From NCBI GenBank assembly GCA_021151535.1, contig JAGKXC010000001.1:14601-78600 (forward strand): a DNA stretch of 64,000 nucleotides, read 5' to 3'. Made by a program: the position numbers and the translations under genes. This document shows, in pieces, positions 22,352 through 54,524 of this stretch; position 1 is the first letter of the stretch; the number at the start of each line of letters is the position of its first letter. Below the pieces are notes generated by a model, which did not search any database, was not told where the DNA came from, and saw only the letters and a list, made by a program, of their open reading frames with translations. This DNA is from Sphingobacteriia bacterium (lineage in GTDB: Bacteria > Bacteroidota > Bacteroidia > NS11-12g > UBA955).

Positions 22352-23758
22352 ATGGCAGAAGTATCAAATACACCCTCATCATCTAGAAAAATGTACATCG
22401 AAAGCTATGGTTGTGCAATGAATTTTTCTGATTCTGAAATCATCGCCTCTATCATGAGCGAACATGGTTTCACTGCCACCAAAGATGAATTGGATGCAGA
22501 TGTTATCTTCCTCAATACTTGCGCAATCAGAGACAATGCCGAACAGAGAATTCGCGAAAGATTAAAACAACTTCGTTCCAATAAAAGACAAAATTCCGAC
22601 CTAATCATCGGCGTTTTGGGCTGTATGGCAGAACGTTTAAAAGATAAATTACTTGAAGAAGAAAAACTTGTAGACGTAGTTGCAGGACCCGATTCATACA
22701 GAGAATTACCCAAATTAGTAGCCGAAGTAGATGAAGGTGGCCGGGCGATTAATGTTCTACTTTCTAGAGAAGAAACCTACGGTGATTTAAATCCAGTTAG
22801 ACTAAATTCCAACGGAGTTACCGCCTTCATTTCTATCATGAGAGGCTGCGATAACATGTGTAGCTTCTGCGTTGTACCATTCACTCGTGGAAGAGAACGC
22901 TCAAGAGATCCGCAATCCATTGTAAAAGAAGCAGTAGACCTACAAAATGCTGGATATAAAGAAATTACACTATTAGGCCAAAATGTAAACTCATATTTGT
23001 GGTTTGGGGGCGGGGCGAAAAAGGATTTTAAATCACTTACTGATGAAGAAAAAGCTTCTTCGGTTGATTTCGCCGATTTACTAGAACTTTGCGCTAATGC
23101 AGTTCCGAACTTGCGCATTCGATATAGCACATCACACCCAAGAGACATTAACGAAAAAGTTGTTAGGGTAATGGCTCAATATCCAAACTTGTGCAATTAT
23201 ATTCACCTACCTGCTCAGTCCGGAAATACAAGAGTATTGGATATCATGAGCAGAAATTACACCAGAGAATGGTACATGGATAAAATTACCATGATCCGAT
23301 CAATCATTCCAGATTGTGGTATTTCTTGCGATATCATCGCCGGATTCTGCACAGAAACTGAAGAAGAACATAAAGACACGCTTACACTTATTGAAGAATG
23401 CAAATTCGACTTTAGTTACATGTACAAATACAGCGAAAGGCCCGGAACTCCTGCAGCCAAAAAACTAACAGATGATATCCCAGAAGATGTAAAAGGTAGA
23501 CGTTTGGCAGAAATTATCACTGTACAAAACAGAGTCTCAAAAGAAAACAACCAAGCCTACATTGGCAAAACTGTGAAAGTTCTAGTTGAAGCAGCGAGTA
23601 AAAAAAGTAAAAATGATTGGATGGGCAGAAACGATCAAAATATCGTAACAGTATTCCCATGTGAACATTATCAAAAAGGCGACTTGGTTGAAGTACTAAT
23701 CGAAAGAATCACAACCACTACCTTAATCGGTAAGGCAATAGGAAAAACAACCATTTAA
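22352..23758 (+). CDS. miaB: tRNA-2-methylthio-N6-dimethylallyladenosine synthase (radical SAM methylthiotransferase)
   Basis: MTTase N-terminal Cys triad ([10 protein letters not shown]...FLNTCAIR...LGCMA), radical [14 protein letters not shown], and C-terminal TRAM domain. Confidence 0.85.
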
Positions 23759-23793
23759 GATGGTTGTTCAAAATACTGTCGCTACAAAAAATC

Positions 23794-34679: not shown

Positions 34680-36140
34680 ATGAGTTTTTTCTCCTCCGAC
34701 TGGGACGACGACGAAGATGATGAAATCTTCCAAGGCGATGTAGATGCGTTAGTGAATGATTTTGAAAGCAAGTTTCGTGAGCAATTTTCTGCAAGAGAAT
34801 ATCTTGAATTATTCAGGCATTACGCTTCACAGTTTCCTACACAAACTGGGCAATTACGCGTAGATCAGCATATAAAAAATATTTTAGATGCCGCTATCGC
34901 TCAATATCCCTATATGCCCATTTTTACATTGCATATGTGTGAATGGTTAATTAGGGATTCAAAATTAAACAGAGCCAAAGCTTACATCGATAAAGCATTA
35001 AAATTCAATCCTTTTGAGCCAGCTTTGGGTTTTATGCAAGCCCTTATTTACAGTCTTCAAGGCAATGAAAACAATGCGCTCGAAAAACTTTCACAAATTC
35101 TTCAAAACATCGGAGAAGAAGAATCATTAATAGAAGAATTCCTGGAAATAGCTTTATACCATGAACAATTTAAATTGGCAATGCCTATTCTGGAAAAAGC
35201 ATTGGATGCGGGTGCAGATGTAAGCAATATCATTGAAAAATATATCGAAAAAGCAGAAGAAAATGGCCTTATTGCAGCCTTGATCCCCATGATTGAAAGA
35301 ATTATCGATCAAGACCCTTATTCTGCCGAAGCATGGTATGTCTTGGGTTCCGCGTGGATGAATCAAAGCAACCATGAAAAAGGTTTGAAAGCATTGGATT
35401 ATGCTGTTACCATTAATGAAAATTTCGCAGATGCCTGGATGGCTTTTCTAGAATGCCAATACGAATTAGGCCAATATGAAGAATTCATAAAAACTTATCT
35501 CTCCTTACAAGATAAATTTCATAAATCTGCTTTCGATGAAGTTTATGGACTCCTGGCTTGGAGTTATTACGAATCGGGCGATACTAAAACATGTCGTTCT
35601 ATTTATAAAGATATACTCAAGAAACAACCCCATGACGCTGAGGCTTGGTACTCTATGGGTTTAACATGGCATTATGAAGAAAATTACTCAGCCGCCATAC
35701 CCTATCTCGAAAAAGCCTATGACATTGATAGATTCGAACCCGACTACGGAATGGTGCTTGCTTCTGCCTATTTTGGCGCACAATTAATCGATAAATGGGA
35801 ACCTTTGTACACTACATTAACACTGGAACATCCAAAAAATCCCGAATTGTGGCTAGATTATATTACTGCACTTCATGAATCTGGCGAAGCTGAAAAAGCG
35901 CTAGATGTTATTGAAAAAGCGCTCACCAACAACCCACAGCATCCCGGTCTTTTATATCGATTTGCAGCACTTTGCTACCTAAACGGACAACAAAATGCTG
36001 CTTCTCTAGTTTTAGAAAGAGCATTGGAATTAAACCCCAATGAACACATACAATTGTTTACCTTTGCACCAGAATTGAAGAAATCTACTTTAATTCTTTC
36101 AATTATTTCAAAATTCACATCACCAAGAACTGGATCATGA
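34680..36140 (+). CDS. tetratricopeptide-repeat protein with highly acidic N-terminus
   Basis: MSFFSSDWDDDEDDEIFQGDVDAL... followed by multiple W/AxxYxxLG TPR-like units (AEAWYVLGSAWMNQ, AEAWYSMGLTWHYE). Confidence 0.6.
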   Translation: MSFFSSDWDDDEDDEIFQGDVDALVNDFESKFREQFSAREYLELFRHYASQFPTQTGQLRVDQHIKNILDAAIAQYPYMPIFTLHMCEWLIRDSKLNRAKAYIDKALKFNPFEPALGFMQALIYSLQGNENNALEKLSQILQNIGEEESLIEEFLEIALYHEQFKLAMPILEKALDAGADVSNIIEKYIEKAEENGLIAALIPMIERIIDQDPYSAEAWYVLGSAWMNQSNHEKGLKALDYAVTINENFADAWMAFLECQYELGQYEEFIKTYLSLQDKFHKSAFDEVYGLLAWSYYESGDTKTCRSIYKDILKKQPHDAEAWYSMGLTWHYEENYSAAIPYLEKAYDIDRFEPDYGMVLASAYFGAQLIDKWEPLYTTLTLEHPKNPELWLDYITALHESGEAEKALDVIEKALTNNPQHPGLLYRFAALCYLNGQQNAASLVLERALELNPNEHIQLFTFAPELKKSTLILSIISKFTSPRTGS

Positions 36141-36907
36141 ACTCAGCACTATTCAACCTAAAAGATCTTCCAAACCGAACCTCAAAACCAAGAAACAATG
36201 GTTTAACCATGGTTATGGATAAAGGACTCAGTTTAAGAGAAGTTGAAAATTTCTTAGAAATTGGTTCGGAATACGTGGATATTGTGAAATTAGGATTCGG
36301 AACAAGTTTCTTTACTCCAAACCTCAAAGAAAAAATTAAATTATACCTAAATGCAGGGGTGCCCGTTTATTTAGGTGGAACTCTATTTGAAGCTTATATC
36401 GCAAGAAATCAATTCGAAGATTATATCAATCTATTAGATAAGTTAGAACTTACTCATGCAGAAGTTTCCGACGGTAGTTTGGATATGGATCACAATGTAA
36501 AATGTGATTATATCAACAAATTGTCTCAAAGATTTACCGTGTTTTCAGAAGTTGGAAGCAAAGATGCTGAAAAGATTATCCCACCCTACGAATGGATCGA
36601 GCAAATGGAAACCGAATTGGCTGCAGGTGCATCCAAAGTCATCGCAGAAGCCAGAGAAAGCGGCACTGTTGGTATCTTCAGAGGTTCAGGTGAGGTTCGT
36701 TCAGGTTTGGTAGCTGAAATTATCAGAAAAATCCCCCAAGACAACGTTCTTTGGGAAGCTCCAAAAAAAGAACAACAAGTTTGGTTTATTCAACTTTATG
36801 GCACAAATGTTAATCTTGGTAACATCGCACCAAACGAATTATTACCTTTAGAAACATTAAGATATGGATTGCGTGGCGATTCATTCCATTTCTTCTTGAA
36901 TAAATAA
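36137..36907 (+). CDS. phosphosulfolactate synthase (ComA) family protein, (2R)-phospho-3-sulfolactate synthase-like TIM barrel
   Basis: 256 aa. KPRNNGLTMVMDKGLSLREVENFLEIGSEYVDIVKLGFGTSF...YLGGTLFE...EVSDGS matches the ComA family. ATGA overlap with the upstream TPR gene. Confidence 0.55.
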   Translation: MNSALFNLKDLPNRTSKPRNNGLTMVMDKGLSLREVENFLEIGSEYVDIVKLGFGTSFFTPNLKEKIKLYLNAGVPVYLGGTLFEAYIARNQFEDYINLLDKLELTHAEVSDGSLDMDHNVKCDYINKLSQRFTVFSEVGSKDAEKIIPPYEWIEQMETELAAGASKVIAEARESGTVGIFRGSGEVRSGLVAEIIRKIPQDNVLWEAPKKEQQVWFIQLYGTNVNLGNIAPNELLPLETLRYGLRGDSFHFFLNK

Positions 36908-36954
36908 TTTCAAGTACAAAACTGATCAAAGTTCATTATTAAGTTAATTGAACG

Positions 36955-38097
36955 CTATTTTACCGCTACTACCTGTTTTTTCGCCTTCTTCCAGAAAGCA
37001 AAAAAAGAATTCTGTAACATCATTTTAGGCGTTAACCAGTCCCTTTTATCATATCCAACCCCCGAAACGCCATTCACAATGGGGTGCTCCTTTGTAATTA
37101 CTTCAAATCCAGCATTTACAAAGTCCTCTAATTCGCCCCAATAAAAACGTATATTAGGCACTTGCCGGGCTAAATCCATTGCAAATTTTAAAGGCCCTTC
37201 ACCAATTGGATGTGCCTCAAAAAAAAACTTATTAAGCAAAAATACCCGCCTACCAGTTTCCTCTTCATTCCTCCATCTTGGATCCAAATGATAATAATGA
37301 TATATAAAAACCTTCTCACCCGATTCAAAACCCAATTCATTCACAGATTCCACGAACCACAACCTAATAGTCTCCAAAGGCAAATTAAATTGTACCATTT
37401 CACCTTTCTCCAAATTTTCTATCCTGCGATCTTTATTCATCAATTCTTCATACGTACAATCTAAATAAGTTCCAACATCTTTGGTTCCCATGTACTTATT
37501 TATATTCTCTTGATTACAGAAATACAATTTATTAGAATTGGTCCCTGCCACCCACTGCCAACTTAAATGATTGCTCGCCAAATCCCCATCTAACAAATAA
37601 TAATACATCCAATCTGCAGCCATTTTCCATGAATATCCCCACAAATTACAAATTACCGAAGCCAAATACATACGCAAATGATTATGTATGTAACCGTATT
37701 TGTAAAGTTGATTTAAACCATTGTCAAGCGCAGAAATGCCCATTTCCCCTTTCAAAACACTAACTGGCATCCTTCCCTCAGTTCCTAACCTCAAACGCTC
37801 CTGATTATTACGCAAACTCAAAAATATCCCATCGCCATGCCATTGCCACAAATGTTGCCAATATTCCCTCCAAGCCAACTCCTGATAAAATCGCTCATGC
37901 CCCTCTTCATACCCAAATTTTTCAATACAGTAATCACGTACTTCCTTTACCGTAATAACCCCCCTAGAAATATAGGGCGATAAATAGGTTACAGAACCCC
38001 AAATAAAATTCCGCGTCTTGCTGTATTTCACCACATCAATCCCCTCAACTCTACTCCAAATCGCCTCAAATTCAACAGGAAATTCTATCTTACTCAT
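36955..38097 (-). CDS. photolyase/cryptochrome FAD-binding-domain protein lacking the N-terminal alpha/beta domain
   Basis: ELAWREYWQ... and GISALDNGLNQLYKYGYIHNHLRMYLASVICNLWGYSWKMAADWMYYYLLDGDLASNHLSWQWVAGT correspond to the photolyase FAD-binding helical domain (TGxP..DAxMRQL..GWMHNRxR..ASF...DADxAxNxxxWQW). 380 aa. Confidence 0.6.
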   Translation of the reverse strand: MSKIEFPVEFEAIWSRVEGIDVVKYSKTRNFIWGSVTYLSPYISRGVITVKEVRDYCIEKFGYEEGHERFYQELAWREYWQHLWQWHGDGIFLSLRNNQERLRLGTEGRMPVSVLKGEMGISALDNGLNQLYKYGYIHNHLRMYLASVICNLWGYSWKMAADWMYYYLLDGDLASNHLSWQWVAGTNSNKLYFCNQENINKYMGTKDVGTYLDCTYEELMNKDRRIENLEKGEMVQFNLPLETIRLWFVESVNELGFESGEKVFIYHYYHLDPRWRNEEETGRRVFLLNKFFFEAHPIGEGPLKFAMDLARQVPNIRFYWGELEDFVNAGFEVITKEHPIVNGVSGVGYDKRDWLTPKMMLQNSFFAFWKKAKKQVVAVK

Positions 38098-39596
38098 ATT
38101 ACTTGATCCAATGATTTTAAATACCTATCTGCTGTTTCTAAAATTGTAGTTTGAATTTTCTCGTCCCGTGAGTCCCAATTGTTCAATAACATCCTCATCC
38201 GAATATTCCCCTCAAATACTTGGCGATGCTTTACCATAAATCGCCAAAATAACGCATCCCAAATCTGTTGCCAATCCTCACCTTTTTTAAACCATCCCAT
38301 CTTCATCAAATAATTTGAACCCGAGATATAAGGCTTCGTTGTCATTAATCCACCATCCGCAAATGTAATCATCCCATAAACATTGGGTACCATTACCCAA
38401 TCATAAGCATCTACATACAACTCCATAAACCATCGATAAACCTCATCCGGATCAAACTCGCACAACAACATAAAATTACCCAATATCATCAACCGCTCAA
38501 TATGATGGTTATATCCCGTTCTTAATACCTTTTTGATTGCCAAATCTACAGGCAAAATACCTGTTTCCCCCCTGTAGAATGAATTTGGAATCTTTCGATT
38601 AAATCCCCAAAAATTCCGCGTACGTTGAAATCTCCCCTTCTCTTCATATACATGTCTTACAAACTCCCTCCAACCCAAAATCTGACGCACAAATCCCTCA
38701 ATGGAAGCCAATGGAATTTCAAAACGTAATCCATACTCCTCCGCCCTATCAATCACGTATTTGGGCGAAATCAAACCTACATTCATATACATCGATAACC
38801 CAGAATGGAATAAAAAATCATCTCCCGTATCAAAAGATATTGCATCTTCATATGGGCCAAAATCCGCAAACCTTTCCTTCAAAAACAATTCAAACCAAGC
38901 TTTCACATCTCCTGTGGAAGTTGCATAATTTTTACCATTCTGAATCATCGATAAACTACCTGGATTATCACCAAACTTAGACGAAACGTAAGTTATGGCC
39001 TCAGAGCAAAAATCATCCGCTTCACAGAATTTAATCAACGGTATCTGAAAACCTTTTGGTAATCTTTTTCGATTTTCTACATCAAATGACAATTTACCAC
39101 CCAAAAAATCACCATTCTCACCAATTAAAATACCACGCTTCTTCCTAAAAAACTGGTAATAATCTGTTTGAAAATATCGCCTCCTGCCACGTTGAAATTC
39201 CGCGTTTTCATTCTGAGTTTGGATAAATAAAGGCGAATCATGCCATTCTACAGAAACACCCAATACCTGAATTGTTTTCTTTAGCCTTCTTTTTAACCAA
39301 TCATCAACAGGATCGATCAAGATCCAGTGATATTCAACAAATCTGTTGAAAAAACTGACATCCCTAATATCTGAACCCGCATCGCCCGAAGAAATATAAG
39401 ATACAGCTATTCCCTTATTCCTGAGTGATTCATAATATCTTCTCATCGTAACCCGATGAAAATGGAGCTTTATTTTATGAAATTGAAACTGCCTAAAAAA
39501 GAGAAACTCCTCTATCAGAATTACTTCATCACACTGCTCAATTACAGCAATATCACCAAATAATTGATGCGGAAATAAAAATAATACCCTCTTCAA
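38094..39596 (-). CDS. cryptochrome/photolyase-family protein, deoxyribodipyrimidine photolyase-related (DPRP/COG3046-like); no FeS-cluster Cys quartet
   Basis: N-terminus MKRVLFLFPHQLF (compare the DPRP start M..LVLILGDQL). C-terminal GYNHHIERLMILGNFMLLCEFDPDEVYRWFMELYVDAYDWVMVPNVYGM. Only 4 Cys in total, none in the C-terminal region. ATGA overlap with the downstream FAD-domain gene. Confidence 0.6.
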   Translation of the reverse strand: MKRVLFLFPHQLFGDIAVIEQCDEVILIEEFLFFRQFQFHKIKLHFHRVTMRRYYESLRNKGIAVSYISSGDAGSDIRDVSFFNRFVEYHWILIDPVDDWLKRRLKKTIQVLGVSVEWHDSPLFIQTQNENAEFQRGRRRYFQTDYYQFFRKKRGILIGENGDFLGGKLSFDVENRKRLPKGFQIPLIKFCEADDFCSEAITYVSSKFGDNPGSLSMIQNGKNYATSTGDVKAWFELFLKERFADFGPYEDAISFDTGDDFLFHSGLSMYMNVGLISPKYVIDRAEEYGLRFEIPLASIEGFVRQILGWREFVRHVYEEKGRFQRTRNFWGFNRKIPNSFYRGETGILPVDLAIKKVLRTGYNHHIERLMILGNFMLLCEFDPDEVYRWFMELYVDAYDWVMVPNVYGMITFADGGLMTTKPYISGSNYLMKMGWFKKGEDWQQIWDALFWRFMVKHRQVFEGNIRMRMLLNNWDSRDEKIQTTILETADRYLKSLDQVI

Positions 39597-39654
39597 TTTT
39601 GCCCTTTAGAAATACCCTACGTATTTACCTAAAAAGCAACAAATAATACAGCGA

Positions 39655-41520
39655 TTAGTTTGCTAAATTTGCTTGAAAACAGTACAATTTCCAATGGTGA
39701 TCACCCGAATTCCACATTCTTACCTCATTGTCTTTTACCTCTGTCATATACTGTTTCACCACCCATTCTATCGTGCCGCCATTGGGCCAATCCGCTATGT
39801 TATCAAATAAAATAATCCAAGCAATTCTTCTACCCTTGTTGTATTTCAACTGCCAATAATATTCTTGAAATAATTCTTCCTTGAATTTCGCTTCAGAAGG
39901 CCCCAAACGCTTCCAATCTAAAAACTGCTTCTCTTGCTTCAACTTGTGATGAATTACATCTTGAATTGTACCCGAATCGAAATCCGGAGCCAATCGAATC
40001 CCCTTTTTCCCAAGCATTAACAATCCAGTATTGGGCGATGGATCTCCAACAATCAAAACCTCTGTTGTATCCGCCGCATCCAAACGATTGATCATCCTAG
40101 AAATCGACCTCAATTCTTGGGTATCATCAATCGCATTCTGGCAAAAATAATGGCCCTTCTTAAAACTATAATTCAGCATTTTAGAAGCCGAACCCATTAA
40201 AATAAATGGATATACAAACAAGCCAATTAAACTCAATACACCAACCACTCCACGAAACATGAATCTACCATAAATTTGGTCGATATAGATGGTAAGAATC
40301 GCTAAAAAAATCCAGGGCCAAAAAACCAAATAGTAATAATCATGAAAGCGGAATTGTTTGGCAAATAGCACAAAAAAACAAACTGTACCCAAAGCAACCA
40401 AAACACTCAATTGCTCCCATTTTTGCCAACCCTCTCTGCGATTTTTTTTCATAACATAAACCCAACCAATAAATATTCCTAAGATTAGAGTTGTTGGATA
40501 AAGCCTATCCTTCCAACTGTTCCAAGAAAAATCAATTACATCTTTAAAAACCGACCAAGATTCAGCGGGATTCACTTGTTGCAGAAAATGCACATTCCAC
40601 GTTTGCTTCGTTAACCAGCCCGCATAATAATACCAGCCACCGATTAAACTCAAAACCAACCCAACCAATGCAATATTCACAACACTACCCAATAATCCAA
40701 CAAATGCATCGCCCTTCACAACTTCACTTTCATCTTCAATAACCAAATAATCGCCATCTTGAGAATGCTGAAAAACCGGTTTTTTAGGCTTCCGCAAGAC
40801 AACAATTTGCCATAGATCCAAAAGCAGCATCGCAATAAAAGCAACCAACATGCTCACCTTCAACAATCCAGCAAACAAACTACTCAACAGCAATAAATTC
40901 CGATAATACTTAGCAGATTTTTCATTCTCTTCTACATTTATCAATGCTCTCAATTTTTCGCCCAATCCTCCACGCAAGAATTCCAATCGAAACCAGGCAT
41001 AAATACCCATAAATACAAAACCCAATGCCGCCGCATCAGCCAAAAAACTCCAAGTATAAAACACAAAAACCGGCGATAAAAACAACAATGAAAGGATAAA
41101 CCATCTGCTTATAAATCCAACCCGCATCCAAGCCAGTAATTTGTACAAACTCCAAATTCCCGCACTCAAAATGGTGCCAACCAAAAACCGGTGAACAAAA
41201 AAACTAAACCCAAATACCCTCCCAAAAATCCCACTTAAATAAGCCAAGATTGGAAACTCCATACCCGCAATTCCCTCAGCCGCCCTATTCTCCATCACCC
41301 TTGGCAAGAAAAAATCCCAGGTCTCGTGAAAAAAGTTCCATCCCACACAAGCTCGATCCGCCTGAGCTCCCTGATGCATCCCATATGGCTCCAGCATCCA
41401 ATAATCGCCCCAACCCAAACCCAATTGAATCAATATCCAAATAATCCAAAACCGAGTCCATGACTCACGCCTCTGAAGAGGCAAATTCATGGAATTTAAT
41501 CCTCCAACAAAATTAATCAT
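39655..41520 (-). CDS. GT-C fold membrane glycosyltransferase (ArnT / protein-O-mannosyltransferase-like, family 39/83)
   Basis: 621 aa with at least 11 TM helices in the N-terminal ~420 aa and a soluble C-terminal domain. The start overlaps the stop of the upstream GT2 polyprenol-phosphate glycosyltransferase by 4 bp. Confidence 0.5.
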   Translation of the reverse strand: MINFVGGLNSMNLPLQRRESWTRFWIIWILIQLGLGWGDYWMLEPYGMHQGAQADRACVGWNFFHETWDFFLPRVMENRAAEGIAGMEFPILAYLSGIFGRVFGFSFFVHRFLVGTILSAGIWSLYKLLAWMRVGFISRWFILSLLFLSPVFVFYTWSFLADAAALGFVFMGIYAWFRLEFLRGGLGEKLRALINVEENEKSAKYYRNLLLLSSLFAGLLKVSMLVAFIAMLLLDLWQIVVLRKPKKPVFQHSQDGDYLVIEDESEVVKGDAFVGLLGSVVNIALVGLVLSLIGGWYYYAGWLTKQTWNVHFLQQVNPAESWSVFKDVIDFSWNSWKDRLYPTTLILGIFIGWVYVMKKNRREGWQKWEQLSVLVALGTVCFFVLFAKQFRFHDYYYLVFWPWIFLAILTIYIDQIYGRFMFRGVVGVLSLIGLFVYPFILMGSASKMLNYSFKKGHYFCQNAIDDTQELRSISRMINRLDAADTTEVLIVGDPSPNTGLLMLGKKGIRLAPDFDSGTIQDVIHHKLKQEKQFLDWKRLGPSEAKFKEELFQEYYWQLKYNKGRRIAWIILFDNIADWPNGGTIEWVVKQYMTEVKDNEVRMWNSGDHHWKLYCFQANLAN

Positions 41521-42476
41521 CCCAATGGATCTTCTATGTTACTCTCTCGGATAATATAAGTGGGTCTATTCTTTACATTCTCACTTACCCTACCCAAATA
41601 TTCACCCAACATCCCAATGCCAACCAACTGAACACCACCCAAAAACAAGATCGAAATCTGCAGAGACGTCCAACCCTGAATGGTATAACCAAAGAACTTC
41701 TGATAAATACTATACAATATCATTAAAAAAGCCACAATTGAAACAAGAAAACCCATCATTGTAGCCAATTTCAATGGCCAGTTGCTAAAACTCACAATTC
41801 CATCCATCGCAAACTTCATCATCTTCGAATAACTAAACTTCGTTTCTCCACCCATTCTTTCCTCCCTATCATACTCTACCGCTACATGGTTAAATCCAAT
41901 CCATGCAATCTGCCCACGCAAATATTTATCCCTTTCCGGCATCAACTTCAATACCCTTTGAACCTTCCTATGTATCAACCGGAAATCTCCCGTATCAATG
42001 GGAATCTCCACACTCGTCATCTTCGCCAATAACCGGTAAAAAAGCTTCGCAGTAATCTTCTTCATCAGTGTTTCTCCGCTGCGCGATTTGCGCTTCGCAT
42101 ACACTACCTCAAACCCCTCCAATGATTTTTCATATAACGCTGGAATCAATTCCGGTGGATCTTGCCCATCGCCATCCATGATAATAATCCTTTCCCCTAT
42201 TGCATTCTCAATACCCGCAGTAATCGCTATCTGATGACCGAAATTCCTAGAAAAATCAATATATTTCACCGATTTGTTCTCATCCGCCAACCCCAAAATC
42301 ATCGCCATCGATGCATCCCGCGAACCATCATTCACAAATACAATTTCATACGCAATACCCATCTGCTGCATCACATCCACTATCCTTTGATACAACTTTC
42401 TAATATTCATCTCCTCATTATAAATCGGAACAACCACCGATAACAAAACAGAAGATTGATTTTTGGTTTCAGCCAT
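41517..42476 (-). CDS. GT2 polyprenol-phosphate glycosyltransferase (ArnC/GtrB/DPM1-like), cytoplasmic GT-A domain + 2 C-terminal TM helices
   Basis: LLSVVVPIYNEE...EIVFVNDGSRD...IIMDGDGQDPP (DxD); C-terminal TM segments WPLKLATMMGFLVSIVAFLMILY and SLQISILFLGGVQLVGIGMLGEY. Confidence 0.75.
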   Translation of the reverse strand: MAETKNQSSVLLSVVVPIYNEEMNIRKLYQRIVDVMQQMGIAYEIVFVNDGSRDASMAMILGLADENKSVKYIDFSRNFGHQIAITAGIENAIGERIIIMDGDGQDPPELIPALYEKSLEGFEVVYAKRKSRSGETLMKKITAKLFYRLLAKMTSVEIPIDTGDFRLIHRKVQRVLKLMPERDKYLRGQIAWIGFNHVAVEYDREERMGGETKFSYSKMMKFAMDGIVSFSNWPLKLATMMGFLVSIVAFLMILYSIYQKFFGYTIQGWTSLQISILFLGGVQLVGIGMLGEYLGRVSENVKNRPTYIIRESNIEDPLG

Positions 42477-42530
42477 GTTTCAAAAATATACAATCTTTAC
42501 TTTGTAACTTTGTATTCTAATATCATTCCT

Positions 42531-42932
42531 ATGAAAAAGTTACTTTCCTTTGGTTTTGTTATGTTGTTAACCACCTTTGCCATGGTTTCAACTACCAATT
42601 GCCAACAATCAACTAGCCATGATGGACCAATTTCTGTTGAAGAATTCGATAAAATTATCGGCGGCGATAAATTAGTAATGGTTGATTTTTATACCACTTG
42701 GTGCGGCCCCTGCAAAAGAATGGCCCCTTTTATCCAGCAAATTAAAGAACAACACAGCAACACGGTTATAGTGTTAAAAGTTGATGCCGAAGCACAAATG
42801 AATATTGCTGATCGCTATCGTTTGGAAGGTTACCCAACCGTAATTTTCTTTAAGAAAGGTCAGGTTATCGGGCGATCCCTCGGTTACACCGATTACGACG
42901 GTTTAATGAACCTCGTGAACAAGTTCAAATAA
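42531..42932 (+). CDS. secreted/periplasmic thioredoxin
   Basis: Signal peptide MKKLLSFGFVMLLTTFAMVSTTNC; active site FYTTWCGPCKRMAP. Start moved from the track's 42456 to 42531 because 42456 overlaps the divergent GT2 gene start. Confidence 0.8.
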   Translation: MKKLLSFGFVMLLTTFAMVSTTNCQQSTSHDGPISVEEFDKIIGGDKLVMVDFYTTWCGPCKRMAPFIQQIKEQHSNTVIVLKVDAEAQMNIADRYRLEGYPTVIFFKKGQVIGRSLGYTDYDGLMNLVNKFK

Positions 42933-42960
42933 GTTAATCCCTTCCCACCTATCATATTCA

Positions 42961-42988
42961 AACGCCAGTATCCACTGGCGTTTTTTGT
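42961..42988 (+). terminator. Rho-independent terminator after the thioredoxin gene
   Basis: AACGCCAGT-atcc-ACTGGCGTT 9-bp stem followed by TTTTTTG. Confidence 0.6.
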
Positions 42989-44563
42989 TTAAAAAGATAT
43001 TCCAGCAGATAATTTCAATCCAAGTCCATGAAAAACATTTGGAGCTAATAATGCCTCCACACCGTTGGCTTGAACGTGTAATTGCAGCATTTTTCCATCT
43101 TCATGGAGCTTATACAATCGCCAACCCAAATTGATATCAAACTTATCCCAGCCGCCGATAGAAAATCCCGCAGTAATTCTATTGAAATTCACTCGCATAT
43201 GCTCTCTATAAACACTTTTCTCCGTTCTCCTTATATCAAAGGCCTCGCTGATAATCCTACTAAAAAACGATGCCGGAATTTCAGGTTGTAAACTAATTCT
43301 TGGCATGTATCCTGTTGCATTTATGTATTGAAAACCAAATGGACCCATGTCAATACCCAATTGAAAAGGCATGAGCAAAAATCCAGATCTCCGTTGATCC
43401 AAATTGCCAATATCCTCTTTAACACGATCAACTTCTGAACTGATCCAGTTCGTTTGTTGCAGCTTTGTTGGCGTAATCAAAACCTGCTCAATAGAAACAG
43501 GCTGAACAGCCTTTAATCCTGCAGGTTTAAAGCCCTTACCATTAGCATCCCAAATATACCCTCGGCTACTCACCAACGCATCTTTTAAATAAAACACCCC
43601 AAAATCCTTTAAATCAAACTTGATTACCTGCTTTAACTGGCGATAATATGATCTAGAAAAAAGGTTATAATTACTAAACGACAAACCCATAACCGCGCCA
43701 CTGCTATTTTCATCCATCCTTACCCAGTTATATCGCCCGTTTACAGAAAGTGAATCTGCCAGCGATGAAGTATATACCTTCACAACCTCAGTTTTTAAAC
43801 GCTGAAAACCCGTTAATCTACCCACAAAAACACCCATCTCAATAAACGCAATATTATAATTCCACAATCCATAGGATTCTCGTTTCGTTCTTTCATGGGA
43901 AGATCCATAATAGGTTTCTCTGTTTATTGAAAGCAAAAAATCCAATCGCTCAGCCAAATATTGATCTACCTTATTGCTTCCCACATTCAACAACTCCCCG
44001 CGATAATATCCATTGCCCATAAACATCAATTTATAAGCATCTGGCGATATTTTTCCATTCAACAACCCACCTATACTTCCCACAACAGACCAATAATTGA
44101 TTGTAGAAATGCGAATTTTAGATAGTCCAGTTGCCGAAATAAACGCCGTATCATTTACAATTTCATCGTCTTCTCTCATTTTCTCCAACAGCGATTTATC
44201 TTTCACGTTTGAGGCAATCAACTTCGGTTCTCTAACTACCGAAGAAAATGAAAATCCAAAATTCTGATATAAACCAAATCGGCATTGACCCGTTCCAAAT
44301 CGATTGGCAGTATTACTCAATACTTCCTTGTCCATCCCACCGCCAAAAGCCAATTTATTGAATATATGTTGCGGTAAAATGTTACTTCCCGTCTGCAGAT
44401 TTGAAGTAAAAAAACCATAATACTGCTTCTTCTCTGGCTTCGTTTCAGAAACAGAATCTACCATCACACTATCAGATAAAACATCCTGTGCCATGGAAAT
44501 TCCAACATTACCAATCGCCAGTAAAAATACAATCCACTTACTTTTCATCTTTTCCTGCTCCAA
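42989..44563 (-). CDS. outer-membrane protein of unknown function (beta-barrel-like, C-terminal Phe)
   Basis: Signal peptide MKSKWIVFLLAIGNVGISMAQD. 524 aa, alternating beta pattern, C-terminus ...LKLSAGISF. Confidence 0.45.
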   Translation of the reverse strand: MEQEKMKSKWIVFLLAIGNVGISMAQDVLSDSVMVDSVSETKPEKKQYYGFFTSNLQTGSNILPQHIFNKLAFGGGMDKEVLSNTANRFGTGQCRFGLYQNFGFSFSSVVREPKLIASNVKDKSLLEKMREDDEIVNDTAFISATGLSKIRISTINYWSVVGSIGGLLNGKISPDAYKLMFMGNGYYRGELLNVGSNKVDQYLAERLDFLLSINRETYYGSSHERTKRESYGLWNYNIAFIEMGVFVGRLTGFQRLKTEVVKVYTSSLADSLSVNGRYNWVRMDENSSGAVMGLSFSNYNLFSRSYYRQLKQVIKFDLKDFGVFYLKDALVSSRGYIWDANGKGFKPAGLKAVQPVSIEQVLITPTKLQQTNWISSEVDRVKEDIGNLDQRRSGFLLMPFQLGIDMGPFGFQYINATGYMPRISLQPEIPASFFSRIISEAFDIRRTEKSVYREHMRVNFNRITAGFSIGGWDKFDINLGWRLYKLHEDGKMLQLHVQANGVEALLAPNVFHGLGLKLSAGISF

Positions 44564-44565
44564 AA

Positions 44566-46644
44566 TTATTTGCCAATTTTCACCTGATAATCAACCTCAA
44601 TAGCCGTATTCATCTTTAACTGATAAACACTGTTCATCGTTTTCATCAATCCATCACTATTCAAAGTAGCTTGTATGGCAATAAACTTTGCTTGCTGCAA
44701 AGCCCAAATCTTCTCTCTGGGCAACGCAATACTAAAATTAGATTTCACAGTTTCTACCGGACTTCCATTAGGCAAAGTAATCCCTGGCTCAATGGCATTC
44801 AAACCTCCAACCACATCCAAACTCGTTAAATAACCCATCCCAGCATCTAATAAATCCAATTTCAACCCTGCTCCAAATGGAAACCCATTTTCTACTTCTA
44901 TCAAAATATTAGCGCCCCTAATTCTACTCAAATCACCCAACTTCTCCAACGATAAACTCTGGGTATCCCTTAAATTTAAATGATTAAATAACAATGAATA
45001 AGGCGCCTCTATCTTAAGTATTACTTCAACTTTACTGTTGTCAAAAACAAAATCTTTCCAATTGTTCACATTCCCATTTGGACTGGTTTCAATATCTAAG
45101 TTATAATGCAACAACTGCGGCAAATTCTCAATAAAGGTTCGAATATTTGAATTACTAGAATCTAATGCAATAATGGTCTCTGTGTAGGCATCACGCTTAA
45201 AAGGTGGTGAGGTAACAAATAAATCCTGCCCCAAAACAGTTGCGCCCAAGGCTTGTGAATTCTTGGTAAATACATTTTCCCCTACCAACTTATTCAACCT
45301 TATTCTGCCATCACCGCCAATACTATTTCTCAAAATTAAACTCACCTTAAAATCTTTCAATTTCATGTCAGCATCCAAACCCTTGAATAAATCAAAACCA
45401 GCAACTTGCTCGCCTGTTTGGTTCAAATTCTGACCCATATATCCAATCGCATAATCCGGATACATACCCTCCAATCGGTAATCAATTCGAATACTATCAT
45501 TCAAACCCACCTCTACTTTCCTACCAGAGCTATCCATTGTTACCAGTAAAACCTGGTGGAAAGTGTTTACAGTATCCTTTACGTTCGGATCCTTTCCTCT
45601 AAAGTCAATAACATAATCAGTTAGATCAAACAGCTCATCTTTGGTGGAAATATTCCCCTTAGTTGCACCAGGTAGTTTCACAATTGATTCCAACACCTTG
45701 CCATCCTTTTCAGCCGATGGAATTTTAAAGAACATCGTCATATCCTCCTCAATCGTGCTCACCAGATGAATGCGAATATGACCTCTTTTACACTTAAAAT
45801 ATTTCACCTGCGCACCGCCCATATAAACGGGCAATCCTTCATCTTGGTCTATTACAGTTTGAGTTGGAAACGCAGCTATAGCATGCCTTGGTCTCAATTT
45901 TCTAACGGCCAATTCAACATCCACTCCTTTACTTGCATCAATCAAAACAGGCCCAACACTCGCCTCAGTTATCAACCTTTTAATTGTACCACGCAATCCC
46001 TTAGTTACCGTTTTGTCGCGCAAATCAATCTGCTTCGTTACCGTAGCTTCAACCGCAATATCCATAAATGAATCCAACGCCACCACCGAATTATCCGAAG
46101 CATTCGTTAATTCAAAAACCAACAATTTCACTTTCACCGGCAAATGATTGCTCAACGAAATATCCATCAACCCGCTATCCAATGTAGCCGTTTCAAAAAA
46201 TGCACTGGCATCAATATCCACGGGCGATAAATTTGATTGATCTTGCGCTGGAACATTGGTAGTCTGTCCATTCAACAACTTGAATATGGGATTTATCTCA
46301 CCCAAAGTTACCGAACGCGTTATTTTCTGATCATTCAACTTCAGCCTTTTCAATGTAAAAAATGCCGAGATACCTGTATCATAAGCCCTCACATTCTCCA
46401 TCTGATAACGGTACACCAGATTTTCATACATCAGTTCATAAGAACTATCAATCAAATTTGATTTGAAGTGCGTGGTATCAATATCGCCCAATTTTAAAGA
46501 AGTTTTAAATAATGGCGATACAATACGATTCTCCCATGATGTTGCTTCCCTACTGCATGAAGCAATCACAAATAATACAATTGTTAGTGTACCAAAAATT
46601 AAGCGATTTTTCATCCTTGCTTGCAAGTTAATCCCAACGTGCAA
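44566..46644 (-). CDS. large lipoprotein of unknown function; true start probably MKNRLIF at ~46614
   Basis: Lipobox ...LFVIASCSREATS. 692 aa, no recognisable catalytic motifs. Its stop lies 2 nt before the start of the downstream OMP gene. Confidence 0.45.
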   Translation of the reverse strand: MHVGINLQARMKNRLIFGTLTIVLFVIASCSREATSWENRIVSPLFKTSLKLGDIDTTHFKSNLIDSSYELMYENLVYRYQMENVRAYDTGISAFFTLKRLKLNDQKITRSVTLGEINPIFKLLNGQTTNVPAQDQSNLSPVDIDASAFFETATLDSGLMDISLSNHLPVKVKLLVFELTNASDNSVVALDSFMDIAVEATVTKQIDLRDKTVTKGLRGTIKRLITEASVGPVLIDASKGVDVELAVRKLRPRHAIAAFPTQTVIDQDEGLPVYMGGAQVKYFKCKRGHIRIHLVSTIEEDMTMFFKIPSAEKDGKVLESIVKLPGATKGNISTKDELFDLTDYVIDFRGKDPNVKDTVNTFHQVLLVTMDSSGRKVEVGLNDSIRIDYRLEGMYPDYAIGYMGQNLNQTGEQVAGFDLFKGLDADMKLKDFKVSLILRNSIGGDGRIRLNKLVGENVFTKNSQALGATVLGQDLFVTSPPFKRDAYTETIIALDSSNSNIRTFIENLPQLLHYNLDIETSPNGNVNNWKDFVFDNSKVEVILKIEAPYSLLFNHLNLRDTQSLSLEKLGDLSRIRGANILIEVENGFPFGAGLKLDLLDAGMGYLTSLDVVGGLNAIEPGITLPNGSPVETVKSNFSIALPREKIWALQQAKFIAIQATLNSDGLMKTMNSVYQLKMNTAIEVDYQVKIGK

Positions 46645-52417: not shown

Positions 52418-53995
52418 ATGGAAAATTCACCCAGAAAACCCATACCGGCATTAGCCATACTGCTGATCATTTACACACTGTTATCTCTTATCGGAATTAC
52501 CAATCCACCAGTGGAAATTGGACATAACTGGCGACAAACTGTTACCGCCATGATGGCCCGAAACTTCTACACCCATAATACTACTTTTCTTTACCCAGAA
52601 GTAGACATGACCGGTAACAAATCAGGAATTATTGGTGCTGAATTTCCATTATTCCCCCAACTTATAGCGTACGCCGATCAACTTTTTGGTTTCCAACATT
52701 GGTACGGAAGATTAATAAATTTAATCATTTCAATTTTCGGGGCGATCGCTTTTTACACGTCAACAAAGCAGTTGTTTTCAAAAAAAATTGCCTTCAATGC
52801 TACAGCCATTTTACTCTGTTCTATTTGGTTTTCTTTCGCCCGTAAAATAATGCCAGATACATTCTCCATATCCTTCGCCTTGATAGGCAACTACTTCCTT
52901 CTTCAATGGCTATCGCCAAATTTACAACAGGTAAAAACAACAGAATTTAAATCGCCATTCAACCCCAATTATCCCGCTTCAAATCCCATTGTAGAAAGCA
53001 TAAATACACCCTCAAAGAAACTATCTCTTGCCCCATTCCATATTTTGGGCTTCATCTTTTTTTCTTCTCTGGCGATTTTAACAAAGCTACCCGCATTACT
53101 TTGGCTTACTCCTGCTGCTTGTTTTGTTATGTATGGTAACGCACCACGCAAAATCAAATTCTCTATCATAATAGCCTCCATTTTAATTATTATCCCAGTA
53201 ATTCTATGGTACTACATTTGGGTACCAGAACTCAATAAACACTTTCAATTATTTTATCCAAAATCCATATTAGAAGGTTGGGTTGAATTCCTGCCATTCT
53301 GGAAAATGGCATTAGAAAGATTTTACTTTACGGCCCTTTACTCTTTTGTTGCTTTGATTTTTCTAATTCTAGGAATTTACTTTTTTATCAAAAAACAATC
53401 ATTCAAAAGAAATATATCCTTGTTCATTACGCTACTTGTTTTCGTAGTTTTCATTATAAAAACAGGAAGTGTTTTCCCTCAACATAATTATTATGTAATA
53501 CCATTCGTTCCTATCATGGCTATTGTTACAGGAATTGGAATTACAGAATTTATACAACAAATTTCTAAAAAAGAAAAGCCAATTTTCAAATACATAATAC
53601 TGATTATTATTGGTACTGAAGCCATTCTTAATCAGCAACATGAGTTGTTCATTAAACCCAGTGAACTATACAAATTGCAATTAGAAAAAATCGGTAAATC
53701 TATTCCTAAAAATAACCTAGTAATAAGCAATTCTGGAATCAATCCACAGGAAATTTACCTGCTCAATCGCAGAGGTTGGGTTGTGTTCTCAAATCAACTT
53801 TGCAAACCTCAATTCATTGATAGTCTATATCACTGCGGGGCAAAATACATCCTTATAAATAAGAATCTTCAAGAAAATTCAGACGTTGAAAGCTGTTTAA
53901 ACAATCAACAAAATACAGCTTATCATTACATCCAAAAGTACGAATCCAAAGACTATCGCCTAATTGCTATTTCTTCTTCTCAAAGCCCAAACTGA
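52418..53995 (+). CDS. GT-C fold membrane glycosyltransferase (ArnT/PMT-like family 39)
   Basis: 525 aa, at least 11 TM helices then a soluble C-terminal domain. N-terminal loop HNWRQTVTAMMARNF...GAEFPLFPQL is similar to the first periplasmic loop of ArnT/PMT enzymes. Confidence 0.5.
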   Translation: MENSPRKPIPALAILLIIYTLLSLIGITNPPVEIGHNWRQTVTAMMARNFYTHNTTFLYPEVDMTGNKSGIIGAEFPLFPQLIAYADQLFGFQHWYGRLINLIISIFGAIAFYTSTKQLFSKKIAFNATAILLCSIWFSFARKIMPDTFSISFALIGNYFLLQWLSPNLQQVKTTEFKSPFNPNYPASNPIVESINTPSKKLSLAPFHILGFIFFSSLAILTKLPALLWLTPAACFVMYGNAPRKIKFSIIIASILIIIPVILWYYIWVPELNKHFQLFYPKSILEGWVEFLPFWKMALERFYFTALYSFVALIFLILGIYFFIKKQSFKRNISLFITLLVFVVFIIKTGSVFPQHNYYVIPFVPIMAIVTGIGITEFIQQISKKEKPIFKYIILIIIGTEAILNQQHELFIKPSELYKLQLEKIGKSIPKNNLVISNSGINPQEIYLLNRRGWVVFSNQLCKPQFIDSLYHCGAKYILINKNLQENSDVESCLNNQQNTAYHYIQKYESKDYRLIAISSSQSPN

Positions 53996-54524
53996 TTCCA
54001 TTTATACAATAGCGCAAACCCGTTGGCTGCTCATAACCATCGTTAAAAACATGCCCCAAATGACCGCCACATCTCGCACACACAACCTCAGTTCTTACCA
54101 TGTTGTGTGATAAATCAACTATTTCTTTTACCCGATCTTTTTCAATTGGTTGAAAGAAACTTGGCCATCCACAACCAGCATCAAATTTTGTTTCACTATG
54201 AAACAATTCCAAACCACATCCTTTACAAACGTAAGTTCCCGAATCCCACTGTTGCTCGTAATCACTCGAAAATGGTCTTTCGGTACCTTTTTTTCTCAAT
54301 ACTTGAAATGCTGCTGGGCCTAGTTCCTCTAACCACTCTTCATCTGTTTTATTTACTTCAAATTGTTGCATACTTGTTCTCAATTTTGTTCTCTCAATCA
54401 TTCGATGCTGAACCTCTCTGGAGGTATCATTTTTACACATCAACTCAACATTAGTATATCCTGACAATACTATCAAAAATATTGAAACAATAACCATCAT
54501 TACAAAAAGTGAAATTCTCTTCAT
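53967..54524 (-). CDS. msrB: peptide-methionine (R)-S-oxide reductase MsrB, secreted
   Basis: Signal peptide MKRISLFVMMVIVSIFLIVLSGYT. CKGCGLELF...CGWPSF...CARCGGHLGHVF (two CxxC zinc sites plus the catalytic region). The 3' end overlaps the convergent GT-C gene by ~29 nt. Confidence 0.8.
   Translation of the reverse strand: MKRISLFVMMVIVSIFLIVLSGYTNVELMCKNDTSREVQHRMIERTKLRTSMQQFEVNKTDEEWLEELGPAAFQVLRKKGTERPFSSDYEQQWDSGTYVCKGCGLELFHSETKFDAGCGWPSFFQPIEKDRVKEIVDLSHNMVRTEVVCARCGGHLGHVFNDGYEQPTGLRYCINGISLGFEKKK

Follow-up and report, generated by a model that had tools for sequence, protein, structure and literature searches.

The window, i.e., the whole 64,000-nucleotide stretch of DNA that was analysed, contains four minus-strand genes packed at 36955-42476 in its open reading frame (ORF) listing. 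Four genes packed this closely on one strand are nothing unusual in bacteria. The GT2 and GT-C genes overlap by 4 bp at 41517-41520, the DPRP and NewPHL genes overlap by 4 bp at 38094-38097, and a 58-nt gap (39597-39654) separates GT-C from DPRP. The gene positions, both overlaps, and the gap given in the original prediction all match the ORF coordinates. The features of the locus are listed below.

36955..38097, minus strand: predicted NewPHL/SPL-class photolyase, 380 aa, FAD/catalytic domain first and alpha/beta Z-domain at the C-terminus
38094..39596, minus strand: predicted DPRP-type prokaryotic (6-4) photolyase homologue, 500 aa, subgroup-M-like (PF04244, PhrB match)
39638..39660, minus strand: palindrome AACTA-N13-TTGTT, a 9/10 match to AACAA-N13-TTGTT (comparison of DPRP upstream regions)
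39655..41520, minus strand: predicted GT-C fold membrane glycosyltransferase, 621 aa, of an unclassified, fast-evolving family
41517..42476, minus strand: predicted GtrB/ArnC/PgfS-type GT2 (polyprenyl-phosphate glycosyltransferase), 319 aa (PF00535, GtrB structure match)
42477..42530, no strand assigned: divergent GT2/thioredoxin intergenic region, 54 nt, candidate promoter region
42531..42932, plus strand: exported thioredoxin, divergent from GT2 (PF00085, signal segment)

The four families first guessed for these genes (GT2, GT-C, DPRP, and FAD-domain photolyase-like) proved correct in profile, PDB-sequence, and structure matches. The 319-aa protein is assigned by sequence to the GtrB/ArnC-type GT2 enzymes. 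A profile search places PF00535 at residues 13-172 (E 2.3e-29), and the protein matches the Synechocystis GtrB structure 5ekp over its full length (E 5e-94, residues 7-310) and ArnC 9hwj with E 3.5e-42. The DxD motif is present as DGD within MDGDGQD, and two transmembrane (TM) helices seen as hydrophobic segments at 233-262 and 271-294 form the C-terminal membrane anchor. The match to NCBIfam PgfS scores 282 bits, under the equivalog cut-off of 500, and thus no specific orthology is claimed.

The 621-aa protein is composed of approximately 10 TM helices followed by a C-terminal soluble domain of ~170 aa, and the fold of its model is that of GT-C. The AlphaFold model (pLDDT 82) matches GT-C enzymes only, with moderate TM-scores of 0.45-0.56, and its N-terminal membrane domain is polytopic with a GT-C core fold. 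The best structural matches are Pmt4/Pmt2, ALG12, and ArnT, which use polyprenyl-monophosphate sugar donors. The structural-homology search originally suggested for finding the acceptor returned GT-C enzymes but did not identify the acceptor. Residues D55, E77, and E88, invariant in 25 members of the family, are located after TM1 (21-35) and before the helices that follow; these acidic residues of the first extracytoplasmic loop may have a catalytic role. At the sequence level, searches of Pfam and NCBIfam at E <= 0.001 and of PDB sequences at E <= 10 found no match, and a precomputed PF13231 match exists in only 5 of the 35 GT-C homologue clusters. Assignment to ArnT (GT83) or PMT (GT39) proper was rejected because neither PF02366/PF13231 nor NCBIfam ArnT matches, and the protein is thus filed as GT-C fold, unclassified family. 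This family is confined to ~35 clusters of uncultured Bacteroidota.

The thioredoxin matches PF00085 (E 1e-25) and has an N-terminal hydrophobic signal segment. The gene, which had been predicted to lie divergently upstream of GT2, is real: it is called as 133 aa in relatives, where the calls begin at the ATG equivalent to 42531. A terminator-like hairpin is located by this gene at 42960-42983. The Bacteroidetes -7 box has the consensus TAnnTTTG. Within the 42477..42530 intergenic region, TAACTTTG fits this box and is oriented toward the thioredoxin gene, while TATTTTTG is oriented toward GT2. This region is likely the promoter region of the glycosylation module.

The 500-aa protein is predicted to be a DPRP-type (6-4) photolyase homologue that does not possess the Fe-S cysteines. 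It begins with TTG where aligned homologues begin with ATG. PF04244 (E 1.4e-42) and the FAD domain PF03441 (E 1.6e-6) are both detected, residues 7-498 match PhrB 4dja (E 1.6e-67), and full-length matches to PhrB, CryB, and Vibrio (6-4) photolyases have E-values of ~1e-67. The His-His pair, in 'ayaHHiqrlm', aligns with the HH of PhrB. At the four [4Fe-4S] cysteine positions the protein has P, K, E, and Q, and its Cys-x2-Cys loop contains a deletion; all four cysteines are likewise missing in 56 of the 59 Bacteroidota DPRPs adjoining NewPHL. With all four cluster cysteines gone, the protein is strictly speaking no FeS-BCP and was grouped with the cluster-free type. A cysteine-free subgroup M of the prokaryotic (6-4) photolyase group has been described (PMC9178010).

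The 380-aa protein is best described from its sequence as a NewPHL/SPL 'inverted' CPD photolyase, and its activity is predicted. NewPHL was named by Emmerich et al. 2020 (PMC7736829) and is the same as SPL, short photolyase-like, of Xu et al. 2021 (PMC8476157). The FAD domain is at the N-terminus, where the FAD_binding_7 match is restricted to residues 6-193, and no N-terminal alpha/beta antenna domain is present. The CPD-binding set consists of E73, W76, N139, M143, and W182 (E. coli E274, W277, N341, M345, and W384), and the FAD-binding set of R142, D170, and N176 (E. coli R344, D372, and N378). W157 and W180 of the Trp triad are kept (E. coli W359 and W382), and the first Trp (W306) is lost, in agreement with the description of this class (PMC8476157). 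All ten of these residues are invariant across 50 homologues. The positions of E. coli A377 and G381 are both Ser. The Z-domain is alpha/beta, about 150-190 aa, with a conserved SFFxFW. CPD repair specific for single-stranded DNA was demonstrated for the D. shibae and M. mesophilicum proteins, which belong to another subgroup than the window's protein (PMC7736829).

When 36500-43200 was scanned for terminators and sigma-70 promoters, site counts were at shuffle level, and the 58-nt gap yielded no terminator-like site and no sigma-70 promoter. The gap also holds no exact TAnnTTTG box, and no standard Bacteroidetes -33/-7 promoter was identified in it. As the gap is short and has no terminator-like hairpin, transcription from the GT2 promoter may run on into the photolyase genes. 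The Rfam scan of the whole window gave no matches. The GC content is flat across the region and thus shows no sign of a recently acquired island, and only short chance repeats were found in 36000-43300 when searching for repeats that mark an inversion or insertion.

The gap does contain a palindrome. The window copy lies 41 nt before the DPRP start and shares bases of its left arm with the GT-C stop codon. Among 44 non-identical regions upstream of DPRP, window included, AACAA-N13-TTGTT is exact in 27 and has no more than one mismatch in 39. The background is 53 exact sites in 2.17 Mb. Despite diverged spacers, the window and loci L080 and L079 have kept the arms. Upstream of GT2, no exact copy is observed in 59 loci, which is background level, as is also the case upstream of the thioredoxin, GT-C, ComA, TPR, and p692 genes. 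Other exact copies precede genes for SDR, DUF3050, AlkB-like oxygenase, DUF2071, DUF2867, aldehyde dehydrogenase, MsrB, and, in one locus (L122), rhodopsin. Two exact copies elsewhere in the window, at 23746-23768 (a convergent-gene hairpin) and 15564-15586 (intragenic), are probably due to chance given these positions. The upstream region of the window's MsrB gene has AACAA and TTGTA at the wrong spacing.

Judged by its conservation, the palindrome most likely serves a light/UV/photo-oxidative-stress regulon, either as an operator or as an alternative-sigma promoter. A Bacteroidetes SOS box was considered and rejected, as the palindrome does not match the LexA motifs GGA-N5-TCC and CTAA-N5-TTAG; photolyase is unmentioned in the source of these motifs (PMC8565304). 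Neither a described Bacteroidota light regulon nor the AACAA-N13-TTGTT motif was found in the literature searched, which included a review. Recurrent neighbours of 76 NewPHL loci are DUF2805, thioesterase, flavin reductase, SDR, acyltransferases, rhodopsin, Blh, DUF2867, DCC1-like protein, and DHFR, with the rhodopsin and Blh clusters recurring in 11 loci each. No transcription or sigma factor is among them.

Gene neighbourhoods were compared across 66 orthologue-level GT-C loci, with counts restricted to loci with enough flanking sequence. GT2 is directly upstream of GT-C in 59/59 loci, which supports the proposal that the pair forms a two-step lipid-carrier glycosylation module. The thioredoxin gene is divergently upstream of GT2 in 55/55. 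Downstream of GT-C, p524/p692 is observed in 35 of 53 loci. A photolyase (DPRP/NewPHL) occupies this side in only four of the 53 species-level loci and is absent in 49, and profile-HMM searches of flanks of up to 10 kb on each side detected no photolyase-superfamily ORF around any other GT-C locus. From the NewPHL side, DPRP is upstream on the same strand in 47 of 65 loci with enough upstream sequence (within 150 nt in 22), whereas GT-C is nearby in only 3 of 80, all three in the window's clade. Elsewhere, the photolyase pair usually stands in contexts unrelated to this one. The frequent pairing agrees with the 85% co-occurrence of DPRP-type proteins with SPL (PMC8476157).

In a neighbour-joining tree of GT2 from the 66 loci, an exclusive clade unites the photolyase-linked loci with two truncated contigs whose left side is inverted in the same way, and thus the arrangement arose once. 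The window order is the common order after an inversion of thioredoxin-GT2-GT-C and an insertion of NewPHL-DPRP beside ComA. At least seven distinct loci of the clade have kept this arrangement. Within the clade, gene order has been retained while identity has fallen to 40% for GT-C and 54% for DPRP, and ComA-TPR-LysE in the flank has kept its order equally well. Weak selection would explain this persistence of order despite divergence as well as inertia does.

These observations are best explained, with a probability of roughly 0.85, by two separate conserved gene units that became adjacent through a single ancient rearrangement in a small clade of uncultured freshwater Bacteroidota. The divergent exported thioredoxin, GT2, and GT-C would make up unit 1. 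Judging from the families, the GtrB-like GT2 would charge undecaprenyl phosphate with a sugar taken from a nucleotide-sugar on the cytoplasmic face and, after flipping, GT-C would pass the sugar on to a periplasmic acceptor. The neighbours scanned include no GtrA or ArnE/F-type flippase. Unit 2 would be a photoreactivation operon of the Fe-S-free DPRP-type (6-4) photolyase and the NewPHL/SPL CPD photolyase, a pairing that in this proposal covers both main UV lesions, with its own palindromic signal AACAA-N13-TTGTT just upstream of DPRP. The thioredoxin-GT2-GT-C block would have been inverted and the photolyase pair would have landed at the breakpoint by ComA, the adjacency being inherited by descent since then. 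As the adjacency stems from one rearrangement in one lineage, it most likely does not represent a new light-controlled glycosylation system.

The original prediction had raised light-responsive control of envelope glycosylation through the photolyase linkage. In its full form, the four genes would be one functional operon in the clade, with DPRP and/or NewPHL as photoreceptors. The shared strand, the gap with no terminator-like site, and the retention in the clade loci are consistent with such an operon, and CryB of R. sphaeroides, a member of the DPRP family, has reported regulatory roles (PMC9178010). However, the linkage has a single origin and is missing from 49 of the 53 informative loci, the photolyase pair resides mostly in other contexts and has its own conserved palindrome that does not precede GT2, thioredoxin, or GT-C, and both flavoproteins keep repair-type active-site residues. 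A single light-controlled operon is thus unlikely, and recurrent co-localisation of the two pairs across lineages is contradicted by the same counts. Coincidental adjacency, the other reading offered originally, is favoured by the rarity of the link, its confinement to one clade, and the photolyase pair's own palindrome. Adjacency in this genome only, the outcome that was to count against the linkage, does not hold literally, since a small clade shares the arrangement; that sharing reflects one evolutionary event rather than recurrence.

Mild selection for the adjacency is quite unlikely. Here, both units would be of use in sunlit surface water and would profit from shared read-through expression, with no strict coupling. 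The record titles place the loci in surface freshwater and lake metagenomes, gene order is stable despite strong sequence divergence, and light-related genes recur beside the photolyase pair (rhodopsin in L122, and the rhodopsin and Blh clusters noted above). Yet inertia is sufficient, as ComA-TPR-LysE is retained equally well, and the link was not re-created independently in other lineages. It is very unlikely that the palindrome over the GT-C stop codon is bound by a light/UV-responsive regulator that affects both DPRP-NewPHL and the end of the GT2-GT-C transcript by read-through or a roadblock. If true, a glycosylation step and photorepair would be co-regulated by light, as a lineage-specific rewiring and not a widespread system. 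The missing sequence-level family assignment and the only moderate TM-scores would allow the 621-aa protein to be a structural look-alike, e.g., a transporter or polymerase, in which case unit 1 would not be a lipid-carrier glycosylation module; this is highly improbable.

Under the preferred reading of two units joined once, the locus holds no new system. Tight same-strand packing can suggest an operon, and comparative genomics splits this one into two units. One centres on a GT-C family that is invisible to Pfam and NCBIfam and that, in freshwater Bacteroidota, always comes with an exported thioredoxin and a GtrB-like GT2. The other has NewPHL behind a cluster-free DPRP, a photoreactivation pair that is common in Bacteroidota. 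The palindrome is the most interesting by-product of the locus analysis. Its presence before photolyase, rhodopsin, MsrB, SDR, and AlkB-like genes could make a Bacteroidota light/UV-stress regulon testable.

SigmaE-ChrR is a singlet-oxygen/light regulon of alpha-proteobacteria that includes photolyase genes. Like regulons of this type, the palindrome is an upstream element common to photolyase, SDR, MsrB, aldehyde dehydrogenase, AlkB-like, and rhodopsin genes. The element here is AAC-N17-GTT, palindromic as AACAA-N13-TTGTT, and no regulator was found for it. The DPRP resembles FeS-BCP/CryPro in its PF04244 and FAD domains, PhrB similarity, and His-His pair. Unlike FeS-BCP, it does not possess the four [4Fe-4S] cysteines and resembles subgroup M (PMC9178010); relative to PhrB, the DPRP of the window's clade has Tyr for Trp342 and Phe for Tyr391 (approximate numbering). 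The 380-aa protein is similar to NewPHL/SPL subgroup Ba, with the catalytic domain first, conserved residues, a reduced triad, and a Z-domain. It differs from the described members in that the Z-domain motif is SFF and not GFF, and its gene is translationally coupled to DPRP by the 4-bp overlap. A term search of PMC7736829 found no mention of an operon or neighbouring genes. GtrB/GtrV, ArnC/ArnT, CsbB/YfhO, and PgfS/PgfM, like the pair here, combine a GT2 polyprenyl-phosphate sugar synthase with a GT-C transferase; in the window, the genes of the two are adjacent and translationally coupled. Unlike those systems, the GT-C protein here belongs to no curated family, and the constant divergent exported thioredoxin is not a feature of known GT2/GT-C systems.

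The minus-strand run at 36955-42476 is composed of four genes in the ORF map:

36955-38097, minus strand: NewPHL gene, 380 aa
38094-39596, minus strand: DPRP gene, 500 aa
39655-41520, minus strand: GT-C gene, 621 aa
41517-42476, minus strand: GT2 gene, 319 aa

The map agrees exactly with the two 4-bp overlaps and the 58-nt gap (39597-39654) of the original prediction, and the identities given there for the four ORFs are correct, for GT-C at the level of the fold. The 500-aa ORF begins with TTG, which aligns with the ATG start of its homologues. A consensus scan found no terminator-like hairpin in the gap, GC content is flat throughout the region, and the whole window has no Rfam matches. ERZ3460577, ERZ27247967, and SRR7812697 also include contigs of this organism. 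Read-through from GT-C into the photolyase pair is possible.

The linkage of the two gene pairs was followed in two sets of homologous loci (L numbers). A GT-C alignment scan with one genome per species gave 78 loci, and two further relatives were added by contig look-ups. Ten window proteins were run by tblastn against these loci, and counts were made on 66 orthologue-level loci. The dominant layout is LysE(-) TPR(+) ComA(+) trx(-) GT2(+) GT-C(+) p524(-) p692(-), where trx is a thioredoxin gene and p524 and p692 encode 524-aa and 692-aa proteins. Among loci with enough sequence, GT2 is directly upstream of GT-C in 59/59, a divergent thioredoxin is present in 55/55, and p524/p692 are convergent and downstream of GT-C in 35/53. 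DPRP/NewPHL are downstream of GT-C in 4 of 53 (L001, L043, L079, and L080). Profile-HMM searches, sensitive enough that DPRP and NewPHL cross-detected one another, picked up no ORF of the photolyase superfamily in the remaining GT-C loci. A metagenome scan with a NewPHL alignment gave 80 loci. The upstream sequence is long enough in 65 of these, and in 47 of the 65 DPRP is upstream on the same strand (at a distance of ≤150 nt in 22 of them), and GT2/GT-C are present in only 3/80, all from the window's clade. From these GT-C-based and NewPHL-based counts, GT2-GT-C (with trx) and DPRP-NewPHL are therefore each recurrent units, and the union of both is not. In these loci, co-localization of the two pairs is confined to one clade.

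The window order is LysE(-) TPR(+) ComA(+) NewPHL(-) DPRP(-) GT-C(-) GT2(-) trx(+) p524(-) p692(-). It differs from the common layout in two respects: the trx-GT2-GT-C block is inverted, and the photolyase pair has been inserted at the breakpoint on the ComA side. The photolyase-linked arrangement arose once, because the linked loci form one exclusive clade in a neighbor-joining tree of GT2 from the 66 loci; this clade also takes in two truncated contigs sharing the inverted left side. In the closest relative (L080/L081), GT2 and trx share 98% identity with those of the window, DPRP 79%, and NewPHL 76%. The photolyase genes, as GT-C and p524, are either much faster-evolving than their neighbors or exchanged by recombination. 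Two modules, each of a known kind, have come to lie side by side in a single lineage-specific event, and light-controlled envelope glycosylation as a new system, one of the two readings offered in the original prediction, is not supported.

The 500-aa protein is a DPRP-type homologue of prokaryotic (6-4) photolyases (PF04244; PhrB 4dja, E 1.6e-67). The His-His pair is retained, and all four [4Fe-4S]-ligating cysteines of PhrB are absent. The same cysteines are all missing from 56/59 Bacteroidota DPRP-type homologues that adjoin NewPHL (window 38094-39596; L085-L158). Only the DPRPs of L128, L139, and L156 retain them, and there DPRP sits downstream of NewPHL. Cluster-free members have already been described as subgroup M, e.g., PromaPL (PMC9178010), and the sequences of the cysteine-free Bacteroidota DPRPs are consistent with this subgroup. 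The 380-aa protein fits the NewPHL/SPL class (as in PMC7736829 and PMC8476157). Its photolyase catalytic domain begins at the N-terminus, the residues with which E. coli photolyase binds CPD and FAD are conserved, only the last two residues of the Trp triad are retained, and the C-terminal alpha/beta domain resembles USP-like folds. Repair-type residues are retained in both proteins. Between them, a (6-4) photolyase homologue and a NewPHL CPD photolyase would deal with both main UV photoproducts. NewPHL is also encoded by Lacibacter sediminis, a Bacteroidota species. Genes for rhodopsin and beta-carotene dioxygenase (Blh) lie repeatedly within 8 kb of DPRP/NewPHL (L122:5914-6657, L132:6749-7666, and 11 NewPHL loci).

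Alignment of DPRP upstream sequences gave a palindrome, AACAA-N13-TTGTT, often GAACAAT-N11-ATTGTTTA, that ends 8-41 nt ahead of the DPRP start codon. Of 44 non-identical upstream regions, 27 have it in exact form and 39 with ≤1 mismatch. It occurs across Bacteroidota, in L001, L043, L079, L080, L082-L086, and L089-L158 (e.g., L086:2355-2377 and L089:2508-2530). As background, the 2.17 Mb of all loci contain 53 exact sites, approximately half of which are the DPRP sites themselves. The window carries a variant copy in the gap:

39660-39638, minus strand: AACTA-N13-TTGTT, whose left arm overlaps the stop codon of GT-C

The window, L080, and L079 share the same arms despite divergent spacers, and the exact form is found in the sister subclade. 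Upstream of GT2, trx, GT-C, ComA, TPR, and p692, no exact copies were found and matches are at background level. The remaining exact copies are almost all intergenic and face a divergent SDR gene and genes for DUF3050, an AlkB-like oxygenase, DUF2071, DUF2867, a rhodopsin (that of L122), an aldehyde dehydrogenase, MsrB, and an AP-endonuclease-like protein. Judged by these annotations, the palindrome-bearing genes resemble a regulon for light, UV, and photo-oxidative stress.

The palindrome could serve as an operator for a dimeric factor; its core is in keeping with the T-N11-A pattern of the LysR type, and the extension of the arms is symmetrical. No regulator gene was found among the recurrent neighbors. 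Alternatively, it could function as a promoter of the ECF-sigma-like kind (AAC, 17 nt, GTT). Under either reading, the photolyase pair brings its own signal, not shared by the glycosylation genes. The palindrome matches neither of the two Bacteroidetes LexA boxes, and no description of it was found in the literature searched. A second, weaker copy, AAC[TC]A-N13-TTGTT, overlaps the end of DPRP 2-12 nt before the NewPHL start codon in 18/69 regions, well above background, in the L086-L146 group (e.g., L101, L097, and L114); it could be an internal promoter or second operator. The element upstream of the photolyase genes merits study in its own right.

Several neighbors accompany the glycosyltransferase module. 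ComA, a phosphosulfolactate synthase-type gene (36137-36907, plus strand; PF02679, E 3e-92), is coupled to the TPR gene (34680-36140, plus strand) and is a conserved neighbor of the module in most loci. Speculatively, this sulfonate-pathway enzyme may be linked to sulfonolipid precursors in Bacteroidota. The minus-strand p524 (42989-44563) and p692 (44566-46644) are also conserved neighbors in most loci. Each encodes a protein with a signal sequence, and neither protein matches any Pfam or NCBIfam entry. The 692-aa protein has a Cys soon after the signal segment and may, as a guess, be a lipoprotein (47-85% identity across loci); the fast-evolving 524-aa protein (20-42% in most loci) ends in Phe and could, equally as a guess, be an outer-membrane barrel. 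A second GT-C-like membrane protein (52418-53995, plus strand; PF13231 PMT_2, E 1e-7) shares 24% identity with the 621-aa protein over 144 residues and has no adjoining GT2. Its gene is convergent with an MsrB gene (53967-54524, minus strand) and overlaps it slightly; upstream of this MsrB gene the palindrome is absent at the correct spacing.

The 319-aa protein is a GT2 (PF00535) with a full-length match to the GtrB structure from Synechocystis (E 5e-94) and a match to ArnC with E 3.5e-42. With two hydrophobic helices at the C-terminus, its predicted architecture is that of polyprenyl-phosphate-sugar-making enzymes. The 621-aa protein has no match in Pfam, NCBIfam, or PDB sequences, and only 35 clusters of homologues were found, all from uncultured Bacteroidota. 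An alignment of 25 sequences gave a confident AlphaFold model (pLDDT 82, pTM 0.86), and all family members have the Asp D55 in the first loop past TM1. The GT-C call is therefore right at the fold level. By sequence, the protein does not belong to the ArnT or PMT families, and its acceptor is not readable from the fold. GT-C is evolving far more rapidly than its partner: in the same relatives, identity is 40% for GT-C and 77-79% for GT2. By family mechanism, GT2 would make an undecaprenyl-phosphate sugar at the cytoplasmic face and, after flipping, GT-C would pass the sugar to a periplasmic-face acceptor.

The exported thioredoxin (window 42531-42932; L002-L064) divergently adjoins GT2/GT-C in all 55 orthologous loci and moved together with them (39655-42476) through the inversion, which suggests that trx, GT2, and GT-C form a three-gene functional unit. 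Its constancy hints, speculatively, at a periplasmic and possibly cysteine-containing target. In this the unit differs from known GtrB/GT-C systems, of which an exported thioredoxin partner is not a feature.
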